Assembly (NCBI RefSeq): GCF_022539665.2
Contig: NC_081333.1
Location: forward strand, 11,098,001 to 11,162,000
Length of the DNA stretch: 64,000 nucleotides
Source: Daphnia carinata
Taxonomy: Eukaryota
Direction: 5' to 3'
This document shows, piece after piece, positions 24,951 to 59,576 of this stretch. The first letter of the stretch is position 1, and each line of letters opens with the position of its first letter. The notes beneath the pieces were generated by a model that worked only from the letters and a program-made list of their open reading frames with translations, had not been told where the DNA came from and ran no database searches. A program made the position numbers and the translations under genes.

Positions 24951-26535
24951 TCAGTCTTCGGTAGGATCGGGTGACCGCTGCCCACTCACGGTTGCGTCAA
25001 ACGCAGCAGTGGTCGAATTTCGGTGCCGTCGAACTGTTGCTGGACTAGGCCGTTGAGGCAGAACAAGACGTGCCAGCTGTCCGAACATGTACGGGTAATG
25101 TTGAATATTACGGTCATTGAAATCTGGGTATTCTTTGAAATGAGGATCCAGGTAAGAGCGGTGATTAATTAGCAAGTGGACCGTGTCCTGATTCAAGCGC
25201 CAATCGGGCCATTCCATCGAATCGTATAAATCTTGCATCAACATGTGGACACCGAACCGCCATTTAACGCGATGCATCAGTTCAGGTTGCCGGTGTAGGA
25301 TCTCCGTTGTAGGACGTTCACCTGCATTGTAATACCTGTATGTAATAAAACAAAAGATGATTGCAAGGTTCAGCGTGTAGTTGTTCGTGCTTTTTTGTAA
25401 AGGTTTTAAATCTAGAATGTTTTTTTTCGGTATATAATAGACTTATAATTGAGCAGACAACTGGGGGTGTGTGTTCACGTTCCCACGATTTCATGTTGTT
25501 TGGGCTGAGATAGGATACGTGCCGAAATGTACTTTAACGCTAACAGATTTTCACAAGCAGATCAATAGGAAATAGTAGCACGAAAAAGAGACGAGAAAAG
25601 AACGACCATTATCGTTGAATCGATCACGAATGCCCTGAAAACAATACACGCATTTGATTTGTTTTTCTTATTTCTTAGAAAAAGGAAAAACAAATTAAAC
25701 AAGTCTTTCCCGAGAAACTCGATAAGTTTTAATTCAAATCAATTCACGTCACGTAAATATCTTGAATTTTTAGTTAGACCGGATGACATAAGAGAAGAAC
25801 TAACCATAAATCGGCGTGATATTGTCTGTAGGTGTCCAGCCAAAGGGGAAGGAAACGAGCGTTGCGATGGGCGATGATGACCTGACTGCCGAGAAATTGA
25901 CCCTCGTCCCAGCCCATGGCAATTTCGTATTTACGGTACTTGTCGAGATTGTGAACGACGTAGACGTCGTTATCCAAATAGATGCCACCATACTTCATCA
26001 TGGTGCGGATGCGGGCAATGTCCGAGCCGTGGTAGAGTCGCCATCCGTCGCTGAGGGGCTGCCCGAAAATCTCCGATGGCAATTCAATCGGCTGGAGGAC
26101 AATGCGTCTATACAAATCCGGTTCCGATTGGATCCACTTCCAATAGCGGCCCGTCAAATTATTCTCATCGACATTCGTGTGAAGGTAAATACGTTCAGGT
26201 TTCTGTTGAATGTAGGCCGAACGTAAACAGATGTAGTCGACGAACGTGAACGTCGTCTTGTTGAAACGGATGTAGTGGACCAGATTGGGGACGACCAAAC
26301 GCCCGCCATAACTCCGTCCGGTCTCGTTATCGAATCCTTCAAAGTCCAACGAGTCAAAGTATTCTGTTGTCGGGCTGATATCACTCGATCCTTCAACATT
26401 GCCAGCGGGGATAGGCGTTCCATTCCATCTGTTGCTGCCTCCGACAATGTCGTAGATGGTCCAGTATAAACACAACCCAGGGAAGAGAAGAAGCGAAACG
26501 AAAGACAATGCCAATAGTCTTTTTTGGTTCCTCAT
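24951..26535 (-). CDS. DXD glycosyltransferase (GT32 / alpha-1,4-GlcNAc/Gal-transferase-like) paralogue 1, 2 exons
   Basis: N-terminal TM anchor, VPNLVHYI, SDIARIRTMMKYGGIYLDNDV; exons ~26535-25805 and ~25336-24951. Confidence 0.88.
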
Positions 26536-28012
26536 TTTCTTTCCTCTGTTCACTCTACCTTCACACGAGGCTCATGATTTCACGTTGCCCAACCGACAAA
26601 GCATGTGTCCACTTTAAACTGTCTGGACTGATGGTAACGCACATCTTTGCCCGTGTATGTATACACGATGAATGTGTGCAATATCAGTGGCTCCTGTTAG
26701 TATAGAAATATATATATATATATTTAAAAAAAAAGGCCACACATGCGCGTTGTGATATAGACTGGTCGCGTCCCCTGTCTTCCCTCCCCGGTCTACCAAC
26801 CCCTCCCCACCTCGGAGTCTGGATAAAAGGGACCCACTGGCAACCTCAATATTTGATGGCGTTGTTTAGTTAGATTCTTATATTTTACTACCTCTTCTTT
26901 TCGTACACCATCTGAAATCGGCCATCGATTTTCTCATCCCTTTCACTTTATGCAGCACTGATGCACTTTAGACGCACACGTCTCCCCTCCCCAGAAGCTT
27001 CGATCCTTTATCGGCGTTTTCTTGTACACACATTGAAACCACTTTTCTTTTTTTTTTTTTACCTTTTGTACGCCATCGTCTCCTATTCCTAGTGCAATCA
27101 ATATAGATGTAGCGCACCGACGCCCTGTTGATTAATTCTTTACGATTGGCTAGCACGCAATCAACAAATTCAACTAAGAAACGCGTCGCGATCGCACGAA
27201 CGCTTTCGTGTGCAGTTTTTTTTAGAAATTAAATAAGTTTTGTTCGTACACTGCGAATTAATGTTAAACGTAGAAAGGAGGCTAGGGCGGATCCTTATGG
27301 TTTGTTCTAAATGAGTCACATCGTTGCCACAACACCAATCTCGCGGAGTAACGGTAAACCATAATGAAAGGCACGAGTGACATTTGCTGTTACCGAAGGT
27401 CAGCTAAAAGGGGGAGTAAACTAGTAAAAATTTCGTTGAGGTAGGGGGGAGGATGCCGGATGCGTCGGGGTTCAGCAACTACGCGTTGTCTACAACGCAT
27501 TGACAAAAGGGGAAATCATTTGAAATCGATTGTCGTGCGTTAGGGGAGAATGCCGAGCGTGAAAAGGAAGAGCTCCGTTCAGCAATGGAGCTGGCCTACT
27601 TGTCAATTCTGTCCGTTTCTACTCTCCTACTCCGATACATTCTATTTCCTGATAGATTTCCTCAAATCGTTTCATGAATAGCAAAATACAATAGGTCGGA
27701 GTTGTGTTTTATCGTGTGTGCGTCTTCCTCAAAGCCGTTGTTGTCCGTCTACACTAGATGGCTGTCTGTGTCTTGGCGGCCAAATAAAAAACGGCTGTGA
27801 ATTCCGAGATAATGATGCATAATTGAGCATTGGCAGGTTGTTTTCAAATTGTAACTTGCCCTAGGTAAACAATATAAAACTTTGAAGGCCACACTCCAAC
27901 TAGACAGCCGTCTCCTTCAGTGGCCATCAATATATTACCGTCTTTTCTTACGTCGTGTTTACTTCTCGTCGGTTAATACGTTGTCCTTTGTAAACAGAAG
28001 TAGTGGGGTGAC

Positions 28013-29101
28013 ATGAACTATTTCCAAGGATTAGCATGTCTCTCGCTGGCCACTTTTTTTGCCCTACTGACTGGCGTCAACTACTTGCCAAAGTTAATCG
28101 AGTTCGTGTACAGCCCTCCTGCCAACTTGGTCTTCAAAGCCAATCCAACTTTATTCAGTGTGAACCAAAACTATTTCAAAGACTTTGAAGGATTTGATAA
28201 CGAGACCGGTGCCAATAATTTTATCGTACCCAATATTATCCACTACATTCGTCTCAATAAGAAAAGTTGGTCGTTTGTGGAGTACATTTGCTTACGATCG
28301 GCTTACGTCAATCAACGGCCCGACTTCATTTTTATCCACACCAACATCTTGGATGGTTTCAAAGGGAAATACTGGAAATGGATCCAAGAAGAATCTGATT
28401 TAAAATTGCGTTTGATTGTAGTACCCGTTCAATTGCCATCCGAGATCTTTGGTCACAAACTGAATCCTCTATGGAGGATCCATCACGGGTCTGACTTGAT
28501 CCGCATTCAGACATTAATGAAGTATGGCGGAATCTTCTTAGATAACGATGTCTACGTCGTTCGTAATCTGGATAAATACCGCAAATTCGAAATGACTTTA
28601 GGCTGGCCCAGGAATGAATCCCTTGGCACAATGGTTCTTTTGGCTAATAAGAATGCCCGTTTCCTACCCCTTTGGCTGGACAATTACCGAGATTACAAAG
28701 CGGATCAATGGTATGTATATCTAGTTTAATTCTGTGTACGTACGAAGTTGGTAGTTAAGTATTAAGATATCTTAATAACTAGGTATTACAATGCTGGAGA
28801 TAACCCGACTGCAACCGTGTTAATGAAACATCCGGAACTGGTCCATCGAGAACCCAAACGACTGGGAGTTCATTTTATGTTGCGTGAAATGTTCCAGGAA
28901 ACGAAGAATTTTCCGTGGCACGAAAAACTGGACACCGTTCATCTGCTCATCAATCATCGAAGTTATCTCGACATGTTCTACAAAGATTATCGCTATTTCA
29001 ACGAACGAAATATCATGCATTATCCATTCAATTTCGGCGAAATGGCTCGGCTTGTTTTGAACCGCCAACCGGTTGGAAACTACACAGTATCAATCCAGTA
29101 G
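28013..29101 (+). CDS. DXD glycosyltransferase (GT32-like) paralogue 2, 2 exons
   Basis: IVPNIIHYI, SDLIRIQTLMKYGGIFLDNDV, W|YYNAG junction (intron ~28711-28782). Confidence 0.88.
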
Positions 29102-29761
29102 TAATGCCTGTTTATTCCGCACGCATTTTGTTTCATCACGTACGTAACATCATTAATCAAAAAGGGTTTTTAATTTTTTTTTAACTGATGCTTAGCTTTA
29201 ATTTGTTATTTTGTTTGAAGCTATATTCTGCAATTACGGCCGGAATGTTTCAAACTGTTTTTTTTTTTGTAAGCTGCATGTAGTTACGCACGTTTATAAA
29301 ATCACGGAGACTCTTAAAAACAATTCAATATTCAGTGTTCTAAAAAAGACAATAGTCATATTCACAGGTGCAATACAGACAAGCTTACGTAACGTCGCTA
29401 GAATCTGCATTGCGTGTAAACTTCTTGTAGTGTTGAAACAGTTGTGCATGCATTCTGTATAAGTATTGCACAATACACCCAAATGATAGAAAAGCCATTT
29501 CTATTTCCCATAGTTCTCGTACACGATCGTAACTATCTGTAGTTGCTGTAAACGAAAACGGAAGTGTGTTGCTTCCAGGAGGAGTGACTGTGTTCTAATA
29601 ATCATTCGTGCCGGGTGTATTTCGATTTAGTCGATTGGTAAGACCATTTGTGACACATGGGCATACCAAAACTGAAAAAAAACGTATGATCGTCCAACTT
29701 TTAAGAACACTTGGAATATTGTCACAAACGGTACATTTTGATTCAGTCGTGTTCGCTTACG

Positions 29762-30975
29762 ATGCGAAGAGGACTGTTACTTTTGAGAAGCAATGCGTTT
29801 CGCAGATTGCTGCGCATATCCGTCTTTTTCTTATTCTTTGGAGCTGCCATATTGATGATGGCGAAGACCTTTCTAGGAACAATTTTTCAAGGGTTTAGTG
29901 GATCGCGTCACGAAGAAGAATTAAGTTTCTTTAATTTTAACAACGAAACTGGAGCCGACCACGTTATCGTGCCCAATATTGTTCATCTTATTCGTTTCAA
30001 CAAAACGGAATTCTCTTTTATCGATTATATTTGCACACAGGCGGCTTTTCGTAACCACCGACCTGACTATGTTTACATCCATACTGACTCACCAGGTGGT
30101 AAATTTATAGGTAAATATTGGGAACTGATTGAACGTGATCTCGAGTTAAGCTCTCGCATCCATATTTTGCCACTGGAACCACCGTCAGAAATTTTTGGGC
30201 AAGAACTCAATCCCGATTGGAGATTATATCACGGTGGCGATATCGCCCGTATACGCACCATGATGAAGTACGGTGGCATTTACCTGGATAACGATGTTTA
30301 CGTTATTCGAAATCTAGACAAGTATCGCAAATTCGAAATGGCCATCAATTGGGATGAGGGTCAATTTCTTGGTACTCAGGTCCTTATTGCCAATCGGAAA
30401 GCTCGTTTTCTTCCATTGTGGCTTAACTCCTATCGGGAATATCATCCGGATCTATGGTAATGAAAACGTCCTTCTGTTTGTTTTCTCTATTAGCTCATTT
30501 AATTTTAAAAGAATTGTCTGTTCCTGCAAGGTATTACAACGCTGGAGAACGACCAACGGTAGAAATTTTATACAAGCATCCGGAATTGGTTAGCGATCGC
30601 TAAATTACAATAAAGGCGATGAAATGCTAAATGAATGTAATTTTATTTTACGTATAGGTCCATCGTGTCAAAATGCAATTTGGAGCTGATTACGATCTAT
30701 CGTATAATCTTTATACTTACAAAGAATTCGATTGGCGTACGTTAGATACCGTTCATCTTATGATAAATCATCGTTATTACAGTAAGTTCAAAGTTGGTTT
30801 CAACATTCAATTTATAGAAATTTCTTTTATTTTGTTTTCAGTGGATCCTCGTTACAACGAAACACCGTTTTTTGACGAAAATATTGTAAAAAATTATGCC
30901 TACCCATTTGGTGAAATGGCTCGTGAGATGATAGCAGCTTCTGGAATGGAAAATTTGATTGGCAAAAACATTTAA
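29762..30975 (+). CDS. DXD glycosyltransferase (GT32-like) paralogue 3, 4 exons
   Basis: IVPNIVHLI, GDIARIRTMMKYGGIYLDNDV; exons 29762-30456, 30531-30588, 30658-30781, 30842-30975. Confidence 0.88.
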
Positions 30976-31835
30976 TTATCATTATCAATGTTTTTTTCTG
31001 TCATCGAAATGGCTTCGGCGCCCATAAGAGTAAATCGTTTTATATAAACGAGCTTCTTCTCAATGCAAATTTCATTTATTTTATGATCTCTCATATAGTA
31101 GATGACTTAACACAGCATGTAAGCATGTGACCTATGGAGCAATAAAAATTAATTGATCATGTTTTCATATATAAATTTCCAGTTGCTTGGAAAGCAAAGT
31201 TATTTTCGTTAGACGGAAAACTGTTCACACATGGTGTTTCATAGTTCGATTGCCTGATCCAAAAGCCCCAAGTGTACACGTCAACATGACATTGTTCGAA
31301 TTTTTGAATGACATGTGTACAGTGGACACAAATGCGTTGAATACATCCCAACAGTAAATGACGTAATCTAATCCTTTATTTTGTTAACCGACGACAGCGG
31401 TTATCACTTACCTCTTTGTTGGCATTCTCACCGCATTGCTGGTGGTTTTTATTTCAATTCTGATTGTCAAAATCGTGCATTGCTAACCAAAACAATGCAG
31501 CGGTTGCCATCATTGAACTCGTGAAAAACAATTGGCAACGTGTGAAAAAAAATTTGAAGGAGGAATTTTTTTAATTAAAAAGATATTTAAGTTTTGTTCA
31601 ATCAGACAAGGTTGGTAGTGCCGGCCTACTTTCTATTTATTTACGAACATTTGGTTTAACACTATCTGCCATGCGTGATAGTCACCTCTGTTTTCGTTCC
31701 ATTTTCACCAGATGCGACAGATGGCTGAGAATGATTGTCGATACATTTCTCATCTACAACAATGCTAAACAAAATTTCATTTGCCCTTTGGGTGGTGAAC
31801 CGGGTAAGGGAATATACAGAGTAGTCGCGCACAAA

Positions 31836-33030
31836 ATGCGGTTGACCATACGAAGAAAATTACTCCACATATCCGCCGTAGTTTTCTTTCTGGGCACGAT
31901 TCTCCTCATGGGCACTGCCGTCTTCGAGAATTTGTTCGGAAATGTTCGACGGCAGCATTTGGATTTTGGATCGACATTTTCTGGTTTTAACAACGAGACG
32001 GGAGCCGGCCACTTCATCGTTCCCAATATCATCCACTTAATCCGGTTCAGCCAACCGGAGTTTTCTTTCATCGATTACATTTGTATCCAGGCGGCTTTTC
32101 GTAACCATCGACCCGACCATTTCTACATTCATACGAACGAAGAGGGTCGACAATTTACGGGCAAGTACTGGGAGTTGATTGAACGTGATCTCGAACTTAG
32201 ATCTCGCATCCGCATTTTGCCTCTGGAGGCGCCGTCTGAGATCTTTGGACAAGAAATTCCTCCTGATTTAAGACCATATCACGGTGGTGATATTGCACGC
32301 ATTCGCACAATGATGAAATACGGCGGCATTTATCTAGATAACGATATTTACGTCATCAAAAATTTAGATAAATACCGTAAATACGAAATTTCCATCAACT
32401 GGGATAAGGATCAGTTTCTTGGCACTCAAGTAATTATTGCTAATCGACGTGCTCGTTTTCTTGCCATGTGGCTCGATTCTTATCGTGAATATCATCCAGA
32501 ATTGTGGTAAATAACTACTTTTAAGCATTTTTTTTCTGCTTCAGTAAAACTAGGTCGATTTAATTTCTTTTGAAGGTACTATAATGCGGGAGAGCGCCCA
32601 ACCACAGAGATCTTATATCGCTATCCCGAATTGGTGAGTAACAAACAAGTGACACAGACCGAGAATTGCATGACGAATTTAGAAAACCCATTATTGTAGA
32701 TACATCGAGTGAAAGTGCAATTCGGAGCTGATATTTCTTTATCTGTGAACCTCTATACTGAAAAAGAATTTAACTGGCGTTCGCTGGATACCATCCATCT
32801 CATGATCAATCATCGAAGTTACCGTGAGTATAATACATTTTTTTTTCATGATATTATTTTCTCGCCATATTTGTAATACTTCATTTGAATTTTTAGTGGA
32901 TCCCTACTACAACGAAACACCGTCGTTTGATGAAAATGTAATCAAAACTTATCTCTATCCATTTGGTGAAATGGCACGTGAAATGGTTGCGGCTTCCGGA
33001 ATGAACAACTTTATCAACGCAAAGAATTGA
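31836..33030 (+). CDS. DXD glycosyltransferase (GT32-like) paralogue 4, 4 exons
   Basis: IVPNIIHLI, GDIARIRTMMKYGGIYLDNDI, C-terminal YPFGEMAREMVAASGM; closest to paralogue 3. An upstream in-frame ATG exists at 31671. Confidence 0.87.
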
Positions 33031-47263: not shown

Positions 47264-48875
47264 GACGTCAAATATCTCAACTATCCCACTGAGCTTAAGG
47301 TAGTCACACAGTTTCGCATGTCGGATGACGTTTCAATCAACCGAAAAAAGCACTCACTGCAGGTACCCCTAAAATCCTATTCCTTTATTAGAAAATTAGC
47401 CTAGCATGTTTCTACTGTTATGTCGTTAACTATATCTTGAAAGAACTTATTTTTATCTTTCTGGGCTACATTTGTTTACATGTGACTTGAAACTCGATTG
47501 CGTGTTTGCATACCACAGTTTCTCTTTCGAGTAAGGGGGAAAACGAGAAATCATATCGCTCCATAGAGATAACTCAATTGCTATTTGGGCACAATGAAAA
47601 CCAACATTGTTGCTAACTCTACAATAAATTCAAACAAGACTGCATGGAAAATAAGTTTGCAAAAAAAGGATTTTTATTTGCATTTAAGGAATTTTTATGG
47701 AATTTTGAAAACAGGTTATCGTGAAAAACAAAATAATCTGGAAGTTGTTAACGGGAAAAAGGAATTTTGATGACAGTGACTTGCTTGTCATTCTTATCTT
47801 TTATCTCGTAACTCATCACGAAAATTCAATATTCTAATGCATTCGGTCACATAGTGAGATCAATATTGCTCAGCACGTAGCGTCTCGGGGTATCGTTGAA
47901 TATCAAATGGATTAGCACAAATTTGAAAATCAAATAGCCCGAATGGTTCGTTGTAAGAAAGCGAGTTAAAGGGTACTGCAACCTCACTCATGACCATTTT
48001 TAGAGCATTACAAAATAATGAATGTGACTAATCGGTAAAACTGTAACAAGACGGAACCAAGCTGGCCATGCCAAAGGTTCTGAATTGATTTACACCATTC
48101 TACACTATCGCGCCGTTTTCGATCTCCGGCGCAGTTTCACAGCTGATTGCTGAAAGAATGGCTTCAAAATTGCCATCTTGGAACTTCGGAACTCCTTAAA
48201 TGCCAAGTGAATTTAACCTTAAGGCAGGCATCTTTTGATTGGTGGTTGTTCATTCGTAAATCATTGATGTTCCCGTCTTTTTTCGTTTATTAAATCAGAT
48301 ACTACACAATAAAGTGCAAATGCAAAAAAACAAAAAACAACAAGACTGTCACATAATTACAAATCATATCCATGGCAATGTTAACCAAAATATGCTGTAA
48401 GAATTGTACAATAATAACGAAGAAAAACATCCAGCACAACAGGTAACGGTCCGTTCGTGCAATAGTAATGGTAACTCTAAGGGTTTGTGTTTGGTGGGTG
48501 ATTAGAGACTCGTGCAGTCTGCTATAAACTTTCTTTAAAAATAAGGCGGAACAGTTTTACCGTCTAAGCTTTTGAGCTGAATTTATTTTTCATTTATAAT
48601 CAAGTTTTTATCATTGATGTAGTTGCCCTTTTATTATCTTGGCAAAACTGAAAAGTCTTTCTGTGGGCTCACATTTGACCTTTGCAAGGTCTTGATTTGG
48701 GGGAAGGCTATAACCTATGGCAATCCGTTTTACCCAAAAAAAAAAAAAAATTTTGGCCTTTTTTTTCTTTTTTACAGCTATGGCCATCTAGCGGCAGATT
48801 CCTGTTTAATTTTCTCATTCATTCCTTCAGACATGGATTGTATATTAATATTTTAAGATTTAAATCCTTTTATAG

Positions 48876-50335
48876 ATTGTCACATCAGTGAGCAAGGTTC
48901 AGTTTAGGGATTGAGAGCCCTCAGCGACTATAACACCTAGCCCATATTCAAATTGTAGCACTTGATTGCTGCCACTGATTCTTCAAAATGCCTATCTTGT
49001 ATGGAATGCTTGACAGCCAAATGGTACTCTGACGTCACATAAATATCAATTGTTTACTTTATTTACATTTATTAAAAATTTTTGAAGGAATGATTTAAAC
49101 AAATGCCAAAGGTGAGACATGCTGGAAAAGCTTGATATGAATGTGTAGACGTAGTTTTGGAATTCAGAGGTGCAGCTGGCTGTTGGGTAAAACTTCATTT
49201 AAATTTTGTTTCAATTCAATATGTTTTAGTTACTATTTGTGTGATTACGCAAAGGATTGCGCCATCTAGGCAATGTGGATATTCTGCCATGTACATGATA
49301 AACCGAGGATTCTTCGTCAACATGCAAGATGTGACTCACTGGTAATGCTTTTCTGCTGAGTTTGTTTAGTTTTCTAGTTTTAATCGTCAATGTTGTATTA
49401 GTAAACTACTGTTGGCGGAAAAGCTGATACATTGGGAAAACGGTTATGGCAAGTGCGATGAATAAATCACCATAGGTCAGTTGTCTTGCCTTCACAATTG
49501 CAACGAAGATGAATCATGGAGTCAAAAACATTAAAAGGTGGTACTATTTTAAATTTTTTAATTGTTTTAATTGGTGTATCGCTAAGTGCTGATACATGTG
49601 TAGAACATGCTGGAATTCATGTCATCCTGGAGAGGACTAAAAAAAACGAGCTTTATCCACGAAGCAGTTCATTAATCATGTCCCAAACGATTGTCTGCGT
49701 CAGCCAGCAATCTTTCAATGGCTAACAAGCATTTAATAATTTTGAAAATCGCGGTTTGCACTCCCTAAGGCGACATTCCTTAATCCTCACTTGTCAATAG
49801 ATTTGAGTGCAACCATTTCTATTCTGAACTGTCGCCTACGAAATTCTTTTTCCATAAAATCAGGTGATATGATGTTATAATGGAAATTGTTGTCAAGACT
49901 GCCGATACCAGGTACATTGTTTATCTTAACGTTTAGTGATCAAAACAACCAACTTTGTAACCTATCTGTTTTTTATGGTGCATGGAACGTCCAACCGGAA
50001 AGCCCATAGAAGATCTCTGTGTCCAACACGAAGGGTTCTTCCAAACTTTCGTATTCAAGTTTTGGCTATGGTAATCATTTGCAACTGCATAGCCTTTTAG
50101 AAGCTCCTGCCAGGAATCTACAGGAATATGGCAGATGATGAATTTACGTACCATGTAAGCGATATCAATAAGAACGTCTTATGCTTATCTATGTTTTATT
50201 TTCTTAATTTAGATTAATAGCAATAGTGAACCTGCGAAGGTTTCTGGTTGGGATGTGATAACGAAAAGTTATAATAATTTGAAGTACGGAATTGAATTTC
50301 CCTCCATCAGTCGCCTGTGTATTCCCGCGTATTAC
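48876..50335 (+). pseudogene. Heavily decayed multi-exon gene; last two exons paralogous to the 52080-53567 gene
   Basis: CIAF*KLL...H|INSNSEPAKVSGW versus CMAFPKLL...H|VNSNIGSEKILGW, with a similar intron at the same position. The 5' boundary is approximate. Confidence 0.5.
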
Positions 50336-50349
50336 GGTATTAATTATTT

Positions 50350-50737
50350 AAAAATTGAAGTGCATATCTGGGCTCCCTTCCTTTCCGTAGCCCCGTTTCC
50401 CCTTGACTCGTAATAAGCCCGTAGGGGGTCATGCCCCTACTGTACGGTATATATAAAAACAACATATACCGAGGTTTGGAGGGCTCTGGCCGGAAAGGGG
50501 ACGTGGGGGTCCGCTTAGTCCGATGATGTGTTCACGGAGGGCGACGTGGCTACACACAAATCCGAACTAAAGGTTAATCGCTCCAGTAAAAATGTTCCAT
50601 ATCTTCGGCTCTTCTTCCGGCTTCTCTTAGCCAATCACCGGGTAATCTCCCCGGTGGGTCAACAAGGCAGTGTCTCCCCCTGCCTGGGTTGACGGCAACT
50701 TTTGAAAGGGCTATTGTGCCTTTTTAAAGTTGCAAAA
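50350..50737. repeat. Left arm of ~390 bp near-identical inverted repeat, hairpin-rich
   Basis: Reverse complement of 51672-52060 with fewer than ~10 differences by eye. Confidence 0.95.
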
Positions 50738-50942
50738 TCATTTATATGTGCAGAGTAATGTCAATACAATTTATTTTTTTTAAACAAAAAAAGCAAATCT
50801 TGTGTTTTCAACTTTATTCTTACTGTGCGCTGTTTTTTCCTTGCTTTTTTTTTTCCACACATGTAGCCATAATGTATGTATTATCCTGGTTATTGATACA
50901 TACCTGAGAGCCTTATTTGTTTTGATTGCGCTTTCAATTTTG

Positions 50943-51011
50943 ACTTATTGGGAATCGAACCCTGGATATTCGGCATACCGCGCCAATGCTCTACCAATGA
51001 GCCATGAATCC
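50943..51011 (-). pseudogene. Degenerate tRNA-like sequence
   Basis: A-box TGGCTCATTGGTAGAGC, stem TTGGC/GCCGA around a 7-nt loop, B-box GGTTCGATTCC; acceptor stem not intact. Confidence 0.65.
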
Positions 51012-51144
51012 ATGAAAGCCGGCGCTATGAAAGTTGGCTTTTTTCTTGTCACTTACGGACTTACATTTACACTTAGAATAAAATTGCAATGTAATGCTGC
51101 AATATATTTTTCTATAATTATTCTGCTTCAATTTTTATACATCA

Positions 51145-51208
51145 ACTGAGGTTTGAACCCAGGGTAACAAATATCGCAGCTAAACGCTCTACCACAGAGC
51201 TATAGCCC
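51145..51208 (-). pseudogene. Degenerate tRNA-like sequence
   Basis: TAGCTCTGTGGTAGAGCG ... CTGGGTTCAAACCTCAG (A- and B-box like); anticodon arm disrupted. Confidence 0.6.
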
Positions 51209-51305
51209 TTATGAAACAAATAGACAGATAAACATATAGTTGTGAAAGACTGCATAAGCATCATTGACGATAACATTTGATATGCGATAATAAAACATTT
51301 AGATA

Positions 51306-51376
51306 TATCTCGTGGCTCAACGCTAGAGCATCGGCGTTGCACGCTGAATGTCAGGGGATCGGTTCCCATACGAGTA
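51306..51376 (+). pseudogene. Degenerate tRNA-Ala(TGC)-like sequence
   Basis: TGGCTCAACGCTAGAGC, anticodon arm TCGGC-GTTGCAC-GCTGA, mutated T-loop GGATCGGTTCC, partial acceptor pairing CTCG/CGAG. Confidence 0.6.
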
Positions 51377-51671
51377 AAATAAAATACAAAATTACTTCAA
51401 AAAATATCCAGGTATTACGCGTTGTTCCTTGAATCTAAGTTGAAGAATTCAAATAATGTAATAAATAATAACTGAATACTTACAGATAAACGATAAACCA
51501 ATGGAAACAATGCTTACCATCAAAGGTGCAAAAACAATAACAAATAAAGCAAACAAAATTAAAAAAAAGTTGATAAATGTAATGTGTGAACACAGAAAAT
51601 GAAGGAAACAAATTTTGCAAAAAAAAAAAAAAAAAAAAATTTATTGACAATTCTCTGCACATTTCAATTAT

Positions 51672-52060
51672 TTTTGCAACTTTAAAAAGGCACAATAGCC
51701 CTTTCAAAAGTTGCCGTCAACCCAGGCAGGGGGAGACACTGCCTTGTTGACCCACCGGGGAGATTACCCGGTGATTGGCTAAGAGAAGCCGGAAGAAGAG
51801 CTGAAGATTTGGAACATTTTTACAGGAGCGATTAACCTTTAGTTCGGATTTGTGGGTAGCCACGTCGCCCTCCGTGAACACATCATCGGACTAAGCGGCA
51901 CCCCACGTCCCCTTTCCGGCCAGAGCCCTCCAAACCTCGGTATATGTTATTTTTATATATACCGTACAGTAGGGGCATGACCCCCCTACGGGCTTATTAC
52001 GAGTCAAGGGGAAACGGGGCTACGGAAAGGAAGGGAGCCCAGATATGCACTTCAATTTTT
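51672..52060. repeat. Right arm of ~390 bp inverted repeat
   Basis: Reverse complement of 50350-50737. Confidence 0.95.
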
Positions 52061-52079
52061 TGAATATAAAATACCGTCT

Positions 52080-53567
52080 CGGGAATCCGAATGAAGTATA
52101 GAAATATCATGTCATCCATCCAAGCATTACAATTTATTCAGTGTCATGCCCCAACCAAGAATTTTTTCAGATCCAATGTTACTATTAACCTACACTGAGA
52201 AAAGAAAAACAAAACACCATTAAGCATCTCAATTGTTGCTCATGTGACTTACATGACTCATAGATTCAACTTCTGACAGAAGCTTGGGAAAGGCCATACA
52301 AACTGTAGATGAAAATCATTGTATAAAGGCTCATGAATGATAAAATAGCAGCCCTAGAATGTTGGATTGTTGATAGTTGTGTTCCCAGTATGCTGAAAAT
52401 CCTTTCCTATTGGATAATTTTTTTTTTGTAGATTAGACATGGTTGGCAAAAAGGAGGAGAAAAGCTTCATCATAAATTCAAAAATTTTTCAAGAAAATTC
52501 CTTTCATACCTAAAGAGTCCATGTATGATGTTCATCACTGCAATGCCAGTGAAGTGAAACATTTTTAGGGCCATTTAAGTACCCAGCTTCACCAACACTC
52601 TGAGCATAAAGGACAGGTTGTTCTTTAGCAAGGGAAGCAGAATTATTTGAGGCTTCTAGCTGTGACAGAACTATAAAGGATTGCTGTTATACAGGATTCA
52701 TTCACACAAGATGGTACTTCTCATTAGACAATGTGCATACTCATCTCTCACAATTACTTTACCTCATACCTTAATGGTAAATCCACTCTGTGTTTTTTCA
52801 ACTGTAGGCTGACTCTTCCATCTTGTAACACTTCCAGACTTGACTTGATCCCCTGCTAAAATTCTGTGAATGCAAAATAAGAGCATTAAAAATACTTTTT
52901 CGATAGACAAAAAACCGAAAAGTACCTAATCAATGTTTTATGTTGAACTCGTGCCATATCTCGGTTTCCGTACCAAACCCATTTTTGGCCCAAATACGGT
53001 CCCACAATTGTTCAATTCCTTCGCTGCATGGACTTATTACTAATGATTCTTTTAGTGCAGCACTAACAGAATTTAAATTTAACACACTGTCAGGTGGTAG
53101 ACTGAATGACTAAACAATAAATAATTGTTTGTTAAAATTCTATACTTATTTTGAATTCTTATTTGAAAAGTTTAGGTACCTGACTGTGTTCGCCTAATGC
53201 CAACTCATCCTCACGTTCAGTTAGGGAAGAGTTTTGAAAAACCTCCTTCACTGTTTGGAAACTGTTCCGTTCCAATTTGTTATTTTCCCCTAGCTGAGCT
53301 TGTAGACTCAAAATTTGAGCTACAAAACACAAATGAATAAAAGCAAATAAATAGAATCATTACGTATTAGGCCTTACCATCCTTAGCTTTGCTGTTATCT
53401 AATATTTTGTGTTGTTCCAATAATTGGGCCTGCAGCTTCATAATTTGATCTAATAAACAATAATTAATAATTGAAAACCAATATAATAATGTTGATACTT
53501 ACCATCCTTTTCTTGTATTATCTTATCCATTTTTCAATTGTTCCTCCAGCCACGCGTTATTCTCCAT
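52080..53567 (-). pseudogene. Multi-exon disrupted gene of unknown family with a coiled-coil N-terminus
   Basis: About 8 exons with GT-AG introns; spliced reading MDKIIQEKDDQIMKLQAQLLEQHK...KDAQILSLQAQLGE...EQLWDRIWAK, followed by A-run frameshifts and stops. Confidence 0.6.
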
Positions 53568-53752
53568 CCACGCTACTAAACTAACTGCGAATGGCATCCA
53601 ATGGACTGAAATTGCATACGCCAGTAATAACGAGTCTGAGCGGTAGATGGCAACGTGTCGGAAAAAAAGAAAAAAGTGTGATTTTTTTTTTTTTGGCGAA
53701 ATTTTTTTTTTTTGTGTAAAACGGATTGCCATATGCGGGTTTCATATTTGTT

Positions 53753-53835
53753 TATGGCAATCCGTTTTACCCAAAATAAAAATAAAAAATATTGGCCTTT
53801 TTTTCTGTTTTACTGCTATCGTCATCTACCGGTCA
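53753..53835 (+). mobile_element. Third copy of the TATGGCAATCCGTTTTACCC terminus (left end of a neighbouring, truncated copy)
   Basis: Direct match to 48716-48795 over ~80 bp; partner end not found in the window. Confidence 0.7.
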
Positions 53836-54059
53836 CGTTTCTAGTTAATTCTCTACATACACTGACCGAAATTAATTTTAAGCCCGACTAAATAAGGCCG
53901 ACTTTTCTCGGTCGGGCTTAAAAATTTTTTCAGGTTCACAATACTGTCTTTAACCACTACGTATTTCCTTTTAAATCTTTACTATCGATTTTTACTCAAA
54001 TTTGTGATAATAACAAGTTGATTGTTCAATAGCAAACAACAAGAAAGGTCAGCTTAAAA

Positions 54060-56034
54060 CAACATGGTCTCCGCGAGTTGACTCGACCGTTCGGGTTCCC
54101 AGCGGCACCCCCATTCTTGCGTTTTGATTGGCTCTCCAGCTTTGATGCCAGTGGCAACCACCACTGAAAGAAAGCAAGCTGTTGATGTGTCGTCTGCTTG
54201 TGCCGTCTGCGTGTCGTCTGCATCGATTTTAATTTTCAAAATAATTCAATTTTCAAATCACAAAATTACTAATCAAAAATCATAAAACGTTCCTGATATT
54301 AACACTGACATCTTTAACTACAACCCCTTGGATTCGACGGTAAGCGACTTTTTTGTTTCCGGTGAACCATGATAATGTAAGTAGTTGTAATAATAATGTA
54401 AAGACTGTAAATATTTGAATATGAAAATAAACCGAATGAAAAAAATTTCTTTTTCTTTTTGTATTATAATAACGATAAGCCTATAATAAGATAAATATAG
54501 AATCGTAAAACTGTTTTTAATTTAATTGACGTTGATAATAATAGAAAATTTAAAAATTGCGCCTAAAAATAATGGCACCCGTTTTCTCAATTGTGATTGG
54601 TTGTTTGTAATTTAGTATTTCCTTAACTAATTTGATAAATTTTTGTTGTTTAATACCCACGAAAACATTCCTCGTGAAACAAGGAATCTAGATATTACCT
54701 TTATAACATATAATAAGCCTAAAGAATGCCTAAACGAAGGGCCCAAAGTTTTCGGTTTTTCATAGTTTCCCCTCCTCCCATACACCGTCCAAAAATTAAA
54801 TATTTATTAATGGAAAAACTATTGGTCTAAAAAGAATAATTCTAATTGCAATGAATAGCCCATTCAATGGGCTATTCATTGCAAATCAAATCATAGCATA
54901 TCAGCATATTCATAGCTGTAGATTTTCAGCCGCAGGGTTCTATTTCAGCTATTTATGCGAATGCCAATTGAAGGAACTGTTTAGTGTTCACCCTCAATGG
55001 ACTCGCTGTGACAGCCAATGCTATTTTCGAAACATTGTAAATTTTTACCGTTAGATTCACAAAAATCGCTAAAATTTAATGCAGTTTGATTTCCATCACA
55101 AAAAAAATATAAAAAATTTTATTTGCAAAGTTTTGCGATCCAAAGATGTAATAGACCCAAACGATAAAACGACAAAAAATCTTTCGTTCCAGAAATTTTT
55201 TGATTACCGAAATCCTACTTTTAATGTTACAGAATTAGAAAGCTCATACTAAGAGCTATTCGTTGAAATGAAAATGATTCATTTCAGACCGATAGTTTTT
55301 CCATTAATAAATATTTAATTTTTGGACGGTGTATGGGAGGAGGGGAAACTACGAAAAAATCGACAACTTTGGGCCCTTCGTTTAGGCATTCTTTTCGTTT
55401 AGGCTTATGATATGTTATTAAGGTATTATCTCGATTCCTTGTTTCACGAGGAATGTTTTCGTGGGTATTAAACAACAAAAACCTATCAAATTAGTTAAGG
55501 AAATACTAAGTTACAAACAACCAATCACAATTGAGAAAACGGGTGCCATTATTTTTAGGCGCAATTTTTAAATTTTCTATTATTATCAGCGTAAATAAAA
55601 TTAAAAAACAGTTTTACGATTCTATATTTATCTTATTGTATAGGCTTATTGTTATTATAATACAAAAAAAAAGAAAATTTTTCATTCGGTTTATTTTCAT
55701 ATTCAAATACTTACAGTCTTACATTATTATTACAACTACTTACATTATCACGGTTCACCGGAAACAAAAAAATCGCTTACCGTCGAGTCCAAGGGGTTGT
55801 AGTAAAAGATGTCAGTGTTGATATCAGGAACGTTTTATGATTTTTGTTAGTAATTTTGTGATTTGAAATTGAATTATTTTGAAAATTAAAATCGATGCAG
55901 ACGACACATCAACAGCTTGCTTTCTTTCACTGGTGGTTGCCACTGGCATCAAAGCTGGAGAGCCAATCAAAACGCAAGAATGGGGGTGCCGCTGGGAACC
56001 CGAACAGTCGAGTCAACTTGCGGAGACCATGTTG
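54060..56034. mobile_element. Non-autonomous foldback DNA transposon with ~760 bp TIRs and 8-bp TSD (P-element/hAT-like ends)
   Basis: Termini CAACATGGTCTCCGC...GCGGAGACCATGTTG; arms ~54060-54828 and ~55285-56034; flanks GCTTAAAA (54052-54059) and GCTTAGAA (56035-56042). Confidence 0.88.
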
Positions 56035-58143: not shown

Positions 58144-59576
58144 GAGGGCAACCTGCGGGGGCCGAAGAGAACACGGGACATCGGGGGATCATCGCGGGAG
58201 CTACAAGATCGTCGCGCAAAAAGGTATCATTGATAAGTTAAAATGTACTAATTGTTTTTTTTTGTATTTTATGTTTTTAGATTGGCCGGCCCACACCGAA
58301 GAGGCCCAACGTGGATCGTCGTGGGAGCTGCAAGATCGCCGTGGGATCGTCGAGATCGTCGCCAGTAAGGTATCATTGATAAATTAAAGTGTACTAATTG
58401 TGTTTTTTTGTATTTTATGTATCTAGATTGGCCGGCCAAAGGACCGAAAAGGCCCAACGTGGATCATCGTGGGAGCTACAAGATCGCCGTGGGATCGTCG
58501 AGATCGTCGCCAGTAAGGTATCAGTGATAAATTAAAGTGTACTAATTGTGTTTTTTTGTATTTTATGTATCTAGATTGGCCGGCCAAAGGACCGAAAAGG
58601 CCCAACGTGGATCGTCGTGGGAGCTACAAGATCGCCGTGGGATCGTCGAGATCGTCGCCAGTAAGGTATCAGTGATAAATTAAAGTGTACTAATTGTGTT
58701 TTTTTGTATTTTATGTATCTAGATTGGCCGGCCAAAGGACCGAAAAGGCCCAACGTGGATCGTCGTGGGAGCTACAAGATCGCCGTGGGATCGTCGAGAT
58801 CGTCGCCAGTAAGGTATCAGTGATAAATTAAAGTGTACTAATTGTGTTTTTTTGTATTTTTTGTATCTAGATTGGCCGGCTAAAGGACCGAAAAGGCCCA
58901 ACGTGGATCGTCGTGGGAGCTACAAGATCGCCGTGGGATCGTCGAGATCGTCGCCAGTAAGGTATCAGTGATAAATTAAAGTGTACTAATTGTGTTTTTT
59001 TGTATTTTATGTATCTAGATTGGCCGGCCAAAGGACCGAAAAGGCCCAACGTGGATCGTCGTGGGAGCTACAAGATCGCCGTGGGATCGTCGAGATCGTC
59101 GCCAGTAAGGTATCAGTGATAAATTAAAGTGTACTAATTGTGTTTTTTTGTATTTTATGTATCTAGATTGGCCGGCCAAAGGACCGAAAAGGCCCAACGT
59201 GGATCGTCGTGGGAGCTACAAGATCGCCGTGGGATCGTCGAGATCGTCGCCAGTAAGGTATCAGTGATAAATTAAAGTGTACTAATTGTGTTTTTTTGTA
59301 TTTTATGTATCTAGATTGGCCGGCCAAAGGACCGAAAAGGCCCAACGTGGATCGTCGTGGGAGCTACAAGATCGCCGTGGGATCGTCGAGATCGTCGCCA
59401 GTAAGGTATCAGTGATAAATTAAAGTGTACTAATTGTGTTTTTTTGTATTTTATGTATCTAGATTGGCCGGCCCACACCGAAGAGGCCCATCAGGATCGT
59501 CGCTGGAGCAACTAGATCGCCGTGGGACGCAGGGACACCGAGGATCGCCGCCCAGCCCCGAGATTCTGCCCATTAA
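58144..59576 (+). repeat. 148-bp tandem array: 7 near-identical units (58427-59462) plus diverged flanking units; each unit is a GC-rich exon-like half and an AT-rich intron-like half
   Basis: Unit starts at 58427, 58575, 58723, 58871, 59019, 59167, 59315, with variants at 58144, 58281 and 59463; each has a GT donor, TACTAAT branch point, pyrimidine tract and TAG acceptor. Confidence 0.95.

Follow-up and report, generated by a model that had tools for sequence, protein, structure and literature searches.

A 5-kb stretch of Daphnia carinata with mirrored inner arms as a probable non-autonomous IS3EU-type transposon

A 5-kb stretch of the Daphnia carinata genome is, with a probability that we put at roughly 55%, a non-autonomous IS3EU-type Daphnia transposon that carries an inverted duplication of a gene's 3' end, within which one block has been homogenized by conversion. 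The stretch lies in the window analyzed here (64,000 nucleotides of contig NC_081333.1, positions 11,098,001 to 11,162,000; coordinates below are those of the window). Its mirror layout, with inward-pointing genes, two blocks, and a trio of tRNA-like copies, is real, and the midpoints of the TIRs (51224.5) and of the blocks (51205) fall within 20 bp of each other, as an earlier sequence-only reading had claimed. Under the preferred explanation, the element would be mobilized in trans. The 3' end of one gene would have been duplicated and inverted long ago, the duplicated unit probably comprising the last exons, the 3' block, a polyA signal, a linker, and a tRNA-like copy. Thereafter the inverted blocks may undergo conversion, either by pairing with each other or with further copies of the family. 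Conversion tracts would end where the flanks had already diverged, such that a sharp island of identity would persist and the tRNA-like spacer could flip. The island was perhaps seeded by a functional cluster of RNA hairpins at the 3' end, beside the polyA signal.

The outer ends comprise a pair of 32-nt TIRs that are 97% complementary, the left at 48716..48747 (+; starting with TATGG, IS3EU type) and the right at 53702..53733 (-; ending with CCATA). Termini of TA..TA are given for IS3EU (PMC10045372), and ends of TAYGG..CCRTA with TIRs >30 bp are given for IS3EU/GingerRoot (PMC12730594); the ends and TIR length observed here follow this published pattern, which links the element to a described family, whereas the earlier reading knew no transposon with this layout. 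Inward of the left TIR, a weaker likeness to the other ends extends through the subterminal sequence up to ~48815 (about 95 nt). Another terminus belonging to this TIR family (53753..53854, +) begins 19 bp past the right TIR. It is 83% identical to the left end over 103 bp, and the left end is closer to it than to the right TIR. Eleven contigs from run X1 (listed as ‘DNA?’ and inferred to be RNA because of its canonical splice joints) join the end at 53753 to unlike flanks and break exactly at its first T, indicating that the outer T is part of the element. This T is common to all three ends, in each of which AT precedes GGC, and the X1 contigs place the TIR family beside many different flanks; a second complete copy of the element was not seen.

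The 6-bp target site duplication that defines IS3EU is absent: the 6 bp flanking the two TIRs are unlike, and the two ends are therefore not established as a single insertion. No alternative far end with matching 6 bp was found within the 64-kb window. Elements of the ISL2EU/PHIS type have GGC..GCC ends, a 2-bp AT duplication, and a Harbinger-like transposase. Assigning the element to this type would explain both the AT before GGC at three ends and the missing 6-bp duplication, but we give that assignment next to no credence, since the outer T is shared and is the point at which X1 contigs break, and since the protein remnant described below links to rva_4-type rather than Harbinger-type transposases. 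The AT flanks belong to a palindromic end, and no Harbinger-like Pfam family was identified among the translated stretches. The absent duplication and the close neighboring end would, by analogy, fit the local hopping and solo TIRs described for Styx (PMC10853768).

Of the 23 X1 joints, 15 are listed; six of these are GT..AG and lie in the left gene (+), and three in the right gene are CT..AC. Both genes therefore point inward, bearing out the earlier description of intron-containing genes facing the center. The left gene (48800..50275, +; 5' end provisional) is defined by X1 splice joints, with introns at 49024-49087, 49187-49254, 49342-49401, 49538-49603, 49912-50002, and 50155-50212. Its spliced model carries stops in all three frames, and neither Pfam nor protein search assigned it to a family (0 matches from 1 candidate, a weak test).

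The second gene, convergent with the first, is the right gene (52126..53530, -), which is defined by X1 joints and protein matches. Its 5' exons hold a coiled-coil-like open reading frame that in this copy stops at 52930, and its 3' exons contain stops. All 14 protein matches to its exon 4 are from D. carinata (81-95% identical, representing 95 sequences), and the family is spread over 10 chromosome-size D. carinata contigs of 7.9-14.4 Mb. Under the preferred explanation, these ~95 D. carinata proteins, labeled ‘uncharacterized’, would be products of a transposon. Right exons 3-4 match the N-terminus of P0052, a D. magna fragment (164 aa) of an IS3EU/rva_4-type transposase (57% over 54 aa, E 4.5e-15); searched against the window, the homologous stretch is 52972..53109 (-; 59% over 46 aa, E 1.3e-12). 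P0052 matches an HMM of rva_4 transposases (E 1.6e-10) that was built from 17 of 21 loci, with L088 and L097 left out and two more having no open stretch with the motif. In an Atlas structure search with P0052, 6 of 10 rows were rva_4-bearing clusters. No longer relative of P0052 was found, none was found in viral contigs, and there was no PDB match. By this homology, what the right gene retains is part of the N-terminus of an IS3EU-type transposase.

The DDE core (rva_4) that an autonomous IS3EU element needs was detected in neither gene nor elsewhere in the window by Pfam, HMM, frameshift-aware alignment, or segment order, and the element would consequently depend on an outside source of transposase to move. 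That the earlier reading found no transposase motif agrees with the lack of a core but leaves out the N-terminal remnant. DDE motifs matched by eye in the 3' exons of both genes were rejected (HMM E >1; Viterbi scores of 18-24 versus shuffle maxima of 19-24). Segment-order rho was -0.2 in the left gene and 0.32 in the right gene, the latter equaled in 4 of 200 shuffles, and matches were out of register. The forward score of the right gene exceeded 40 of 40 shuffles but is located on the open helical reading frame. An alpha-kinase reading had no Pfam support in sets of 5, 10, and 24 translated window stretches, the first of which counts three annotated proteins separately. No Pfam family was above cut-off in any frame of either gene, the best being a 4Fe-4S motif below cut-off, and no TET/JBP match was found in the element. 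An Atlas structure search on P0003 (residues 60-162; best 0.87) gave a lead only, and P0054 and P0056 were discarded as apparent chance matches. Collectively, the missing 6-bp duplication, the missing DDE core, the left gene's lack of a family, and the fragmentary state of P0052 itself count against the preferred explanation.

The mirror symmetry is limited to ~950 bp per arm (left arm 50068..51011, +; partner 52319-51308), with the last part of the penultimate exon at one limit and the tRNA-like copy at the other. Identity between arms is 55-68%, except in a 389-bp block (97.9%) and the adjoining 44 bp (82%). In the last coding exon (67% identity) and in the last intron (64%), the similarity is higher than in any of 200 shuffles. 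The penultimate exon is at about the shuffle maximum in its final 45 nt (54%), and two of 200 shuffles match the local alignment of 50068-50120 with 52319-52261. Shuffles are not exceeded by the 5' part of that exon (52%), nor by the linkers (45.5%), which do not align. When 11 left-gene segments were compared with the right arm, only the end of the penultimate exon and one AT-rich intron came near significance, so that for the greater part of their length the genes do not mirror each other. The proposed paralogy of the last two exons and the intron between them is accordingly upheld for the last exon and the intron, and for the penultimate exon at most at its end. Likewise, the identity profile agrees with an old inverted duplication in which the block alone was kept identical, but one of ~950 bp per arm rather than of whole genes.

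These data also bear on whether the stretch is a chance composite, in which two half-elements (TIR, gene, block, tRNA-like copy) of different IS3EU subfamilies came to lie tail to tail through local insertion or through recombination at the block. We consider this distinctly unlikely, although it would accommodate the target duplication not being common to both ends, the closer similarity of the left end to the end at 53753, the genes being unrelated outside their last exons, and the many right-type genes when left-type proteins were not found. Seven near-adjacent gene-ID pairs among 57 right-type genes (0.9 expected) suggest that such genes frequently occur in twos; however, such IDs do not give positions (two of them that differ by 2 sit on different contigs), and local hopping accounts for pairs too (PMC10853768). 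A chance composite is further at odds with the coinciding midpoints, and the identity of the blocks would still need a cause.

The block copies (left, 50350..50737, +, downstream of the last coding exon; right, 51672..52060, -, from the arm alignment) are inverted, 934 bp apart, and differ at 8 of 389 columns (score 736 versus a shuffle maximum of -210), in agreement with the near identity noted earlier. GC of the left copy is 43-55% versus ~30% alongside. Given this profile, the choice previously posed between selection and arm-to-arm conversion is the right question. Conversion is favored by the abrupt step in identity (60% to 98%), in which the loops and the parts without structure are as conserved as the rest of the block, and by the GC-richness that GC-biased conversion predicts (PMC8981503). 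Against it, the conversion described in the literature drawn on here concerns mammalian arms >10 kb, compared with 390 bp here (PMC8981503, PMC3723533). Judged from the aligned copies, block identity is probably kept by gene conversion.

The foremost alternative, which we nevertheless think unlikely, is that the block is a structured RNA module whose identity is kept by strong purifying selection alone, with a role in 3'-end formation, stability, or germline localization of both transcripts, or as a separate RNA led by the tRNA-like copies. Taken whole, the block folds better than each of 100 shuffled versions, whichever strand is used (z -3.8, -4.7), and its terminal hairpin cluster (50620..50737, +), identical in both arms, reaches z -5.8 (+) and -5.6 (-), when 0 of 77 background windows reach z -4. 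Excess folding is absent from the 120-nt windows that start at 50500 and 50540 (z +1.2 to -1.4), which counts toward conversion. In both arms the hairpins directly precede a putative polyA signal or polyA-like hexamer (AATACA, 50763..50768, +, behind the left block; AATAAA, 51640..51645, -, behind the right block), and in the last hairpin it is on the gene strand that the G-U pairs can form. These folding predictions make it possible that the block acts as a structured RNA. All eight arm differences lie outside the last 130 nt of the block (chance ~0.04), and one wetland contig has 0 of 162 differences in the hairpin-bearing half of the block versus 39 of 505 in gene pieces; together, these two observations tilt toward selection on the hairpins. 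However, 98% identity across loops and unstructured parts, beside neighbors at 60-67%, exceeds structural need, no covariation was seen between the two copies compared, and the folding signal does not distinguish strands. None of seven matches to Rfam covariance models, including ribozymes and snRNA (E up to 5), lies within the block, and reading the block as hammerhead-like is rejected, since two letters of the core differ and the third stem is absent.

That the block is a small separate mobile element, inserted recently at an identical site of each arm, is very improbable. Its outer edge is sharp, and the right copy has an imperfect direct repeat of ~14 nt at its outer and its inner edge, but this repeat is AT-rich and weak in the left copy, the flanks are homologous and in order on both sides, and the block itself carries neither terminal repeat nor tail and has no further copy in the 64-kb window. 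Block patterns had 0 matches in viral contigs, and 76 matches in metagenome contigs are attributed to chance because none runs past 28 nt.

Three tRNA-like copies lie between the blocks: copy 1 (50940..51011, -; 31.5 bits, above the Rfam gathering score of 29), copy 2 (51138..51209, -; 23.2 bits, below it), and copy 3 (51308..51376, +; 23.8 bits, below it). None of 200 shuffles reaches the 68% identity seen between copies 1 and 3, a result that sustains the likeness previously reported for the copies at 50943 and 51306. The acceptor and T stems of the trio are broken, and ARAGORN identified 0 tRNA genes in the window. The first run of at least four T is at 50792 for copy 1 (own strand) and at 51613 for copy 3, leaving about 150 and 235 nt free of such runs, which would suit an RNA led by these copies; a T-run terminator close behind either, as in a tRNA gene, is absent. 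Most likely, the copies are decaying tRNA-derived sequences that keep A/B-box-like motifs. X1 cover is low over copies 1 and 2, which carries no weight either way. A spliced transcript outward from copy 3 is not established, as joints there fit deletions equally.

A bolder and improbable proposal is a Daphnia IS3EU lineage in which a conserved structured RNA module and tRNA-like leaders are needed for spread, as RNA-level control or guide of a cut-and-paste transposon. Interchangeable halves would recombine or flip at the module, and the truncated transposase-derived protein made from many copies would be a regulator. If selection does act on the block as an RNA module, a eukaryotic DDE transposon would have a non-coding RNA among its components, a case of which no example was found in the literature searched. 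The preferred explanation would instead add an odd, undescribed architecture to a poorly characterized transposon superfamily, with palindrome-arm conversion on a small scale inside a mobile element.

In tRNA-derived SINE heads and tRNA-led small RNAs, A/B-box-like motifs are followed by an A-rich stretch poor in T runs. The tRNA-like units here share this arrangement, but they differ in that no duplication or tail of their own is shown, T runs precede the block, and no sign of Pol III use or processing was seen.

Fungal IS3EU elements are described as having two genes in opposite orientation, the second encoding an alpha-kinase, and GingerRoot copies that gain gene fragments often lack the DDE region (PMC10045372, PMC12730594, PMC6839031). 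The element resembles IS3EU/GingerRoot in its ends, its TIRs >30 bp, its rva_4-type N-terminal remnant, and, as far as orientation goes, its two opposed genes, and differs in having no 6-bp duplication, DDE core, alpha-kinase, or TET/JBP match. The internal inverted duplication, the homogenized hairpin block, and the three tRNA-like copies are not part of the IS3EU/GingerRoot descriptions drawn on here (PMC10045372, PMC12730594, PMC6839031). Styx, an IS3EU-derived element of Zymoseptoria with a 36-bp TIR, includes degenerate copies moved in trans, clustered insertions, and solo TIRs (PMC10853768). Similar TIR length, a neighboring end, and the proposed movement of a degenerate copy in trans liken our element to Styx, whereas intact Styx has four coding sequences including an integrase, and the portions of its description used here mention neither an internal inverted block nor tRNA-like parts (PMC10853768). 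Finally, sex-chromosome palindromes consist of inverted arms around a spacer that are kept near-identical by GC-biased conversion and occasionally invert (PMC8981503, PMC3723533). The near-identical inverted arms around a spacer observed here are alike in form, but those of sex chromosomes span many kb of host chromosome, whereas here they span 390 bp within a transposon and their flanks have diverged.

The unit at 48716-53733 is bounded by a 32-nt TIR pair (48716-48747 and 53702-53733) enclosing an inner inverted repeat, both recovered by a repeat search of the window, and the midpoints of the two differ by 20 bp, as the sequence-only reading had reported. That reading described the entire 5-kb element as mirror-symmetric. 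However, comparison of 11 segments revealed no similarity between the left (+) and right (-) genes upstream of ~50068 and ~52319, with the exception of one AT-rich intron match, and the mirror therefore comprises ~950 bp per arm. Piecewise alignment of the arms yielded identities of 54% at the end of the penultimate exon, 64% in the last intron, 67% in the last coding exon, and 60% in the 74 nt preceding the ~390-bp block. Of the penultimate exon, the suggested paralogy of the last two exons and their intron thus takes in only the end. The blocks themselves (left, 50350-50737, +; right, 51672-52060, -) are 97.9% identical (8 differences in 389 columns), compared with 45.5-82% around them, confirming the contrast noted earlier. 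Identity is 82% in the 44 nt beyond the block and 45.5% between the linkers, the latter no better than shuffles.

The tRNA-like copies do resemble each other, with copies 1 (50940-51011, -) and 3 (51308-51376, +) sharing 68% identity. Together with copy 2 (51138-51209, -) they constitute three matches to the Rfam tRNA model, one of them above the gathering score; ARAGORN called no tRNA genes. The D-stem and box-like motifs are kept, the stems are broken, and no T4 run occurs for ~150 nt after copy 1 or ~235 nt after copy 3. Our default reading is that they are decaying tRNA-derived sequence.

Folding of the block exceeded 100 of 100 shuffles on either strand. The signal was strongest over the terminal 120 nt (z -5.8 and -5.6), with a second at 50380-50539 (z -2.5 to -3.4) and an unremarkable middle; among background windows, 1 of 77 fell beyond z -3 and 0 of 77 beyond -4. 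The block is GC-rich relative to its flanks, lacks an Rfam match, and yielded no true homologue in searches of viral and metagenome contigs. All eight arm differences lie outside its last 130 nt (chance ~0.04). A contig from sequencing run X2 had 0 differences in 162 from the hairpin half of the block, another had 9 in 169 from the outer half, and two gene pieces had 39 in 505, a contrast that is only a hint given that these are separate contigs and possibly different copies. We consider it somewhat probable (roughly 0.55) that the block is kept identical by conversion between its inverted copies, perhaps seeded by a functional hairpin core. Copies 934 bp apart would pair and convert each other, conversion tracts would stop at the diverged flanks and sharpen the island of identity, and a crossover between paired blocks would flip the spacer. 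The proposed hairpin core, sited where both transcripts end, may have been the island's starting point. Selection alone is an unlikely cause, since a uniform 98% across stems, loops, and unstructured parts beside flanks at 60-67% appears to be more than structure alone usually demands.

Contigs from run X1, which is listed as 'DNA?' and was treated as RNA by inference, support an intron-containing, inward-pointing gene in each half, with six GT..AG joints on the left and three CT..AC joints on the right (among 15 joints shown of 23). This orientation places the block 3' of the last coding exons; the hexamer after it is AATACA (left) or AATAAA (right). In this copy, the left spliced model has stops in every frame and the right ORF has a stop at 52930. 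One X1 joint per gene skips 440 or 444 nt with non-canonical ends (49536-49977 and 52189-52634), reflecting either deletions carried by other copies or unusual splicing. Within the right gene, exons 2 and 3 (53276-53360 and 53406-53490) arose by direct duplication (69% identity over 85 nt), which yields a repeated coiled-coil-like unit. Right exon 4 matched 14 protein clusters (95 sequences, 81-95% identical), all from Daphnia carinata; this dispersed family of 111-180-aa proteins with an N-terminal coiled-coil-like stretch is spread over 10 contigs of differing size (7.9-14.4 Mb). These matches point to a Daphnia origin of the window, probably in D. carinata or a close relative. Among 57 right-type genes, 7 near-adjacent gene-ID pairs (0.9 expected), three encoding identical proteins, hint at paired copies and hence at a composite of two half-elements, but gene IDs do not equal coordinates and we regard such an origin as improbable.

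A full HMMER search with P0003 returned eight matches, including P0052, P0055, and P0057 from D. magna. P0052 is a 164-aa IS3EU/rva_4-type transposase fragment, 57% identical to right exons 3-4 over 54 aa; in the structure-cluster resource Atlas it falls among HTH and rva_4 clusters. A search by transposase motif supplied 21 loci (three checked, all rva_4 by Pfam), and a transposase HMM based on 17 of them matches P0052 residues 56-162 (E 1.6e-10). The stretch common to P0052 and the right gene lies directly N-terminal of this domain, and the right gene therefore starts with transposase-gene sequence. The earlier statement that no transposase motif was found holds for the catalytic core, which the same HMM did not detect in either gene or the window, but not for this remnant. 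Intron-broken rva_4 (IS3EU-type) transposase genes also occur in prokaryotic MAG contigs (L077-L097), several from sponge symbionts; these are probably host DNA in MAG bins.

A second IS3EU-type end (53753-53854) lies 19 bp beyond the right TIR, and 11 X1 contigs with unlike flanks join it precisely at the first T; no far end for it was recovered within the window. This proximity fits the clustered insertion and solo TIRs that passages on the IS3EU-derived element Styx describe, along with trans-mobilised broken copies (PMC10853768). Copies that acquire other sequence are reported to lose their DDE region (PMC6839031).

Elsewhere in the window, a tandem array (58187-59527) has a period of ~148 bp and is 85-97% identical. 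A foldback element (54060-56034; arms ~800 bp at 91% identity, 395-bp spacer) inside the neighbouring TATGG element has an 8-bp repeat on either side, identical at 7 of 8 positions, and, from this duplication length, is presumably hAT-like. Four paralogous ORFs (25774-32510; 241-311 aa; three +, one -) share a DxD-like motif and resemble glycosyltransferases. A subterminal motif common to the element's ends (48783-48793 and 53641-53651), with one further match at 27752, resembles a CTCF-type core.

The layout is real and is a known kind of transposon in a new form, and it raises the testable question of selection on the block as an RNA. Literature listings on IS3EU (alone and with alpha-kinase), GingerRoot, D. 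carinata repeats, and DNA transposons with tRNA-like parts contain nothing that describes it by title or abstract opening, consistent with the sequence-only reading, although the family may already be deposited in Repbase/Dfam and the termini fit a known type. GC-biased arm-to-arm conversion is documented, in the portions cited, for large mammalian palindromes (PMC8981503, PMC3723533); those arms are large, whereas here conversion would act on a ~390-bp block. Passages on IS3EU give TAYGG..CCRTA ends, TIRs >30 bp, 6-bp duplications, and a transposase with an oppositely oriented second gene (PMC12730594), or termini of TA..TA (PMC10045372). The element shares the ends (TATGG..CCATA) and a TIR >30 bp but lacks the 6-bp duplication at its ends; with a transposase remnant and no core detected, it is therefore what we call an IS3EU-type derivative rather than a textbook member.
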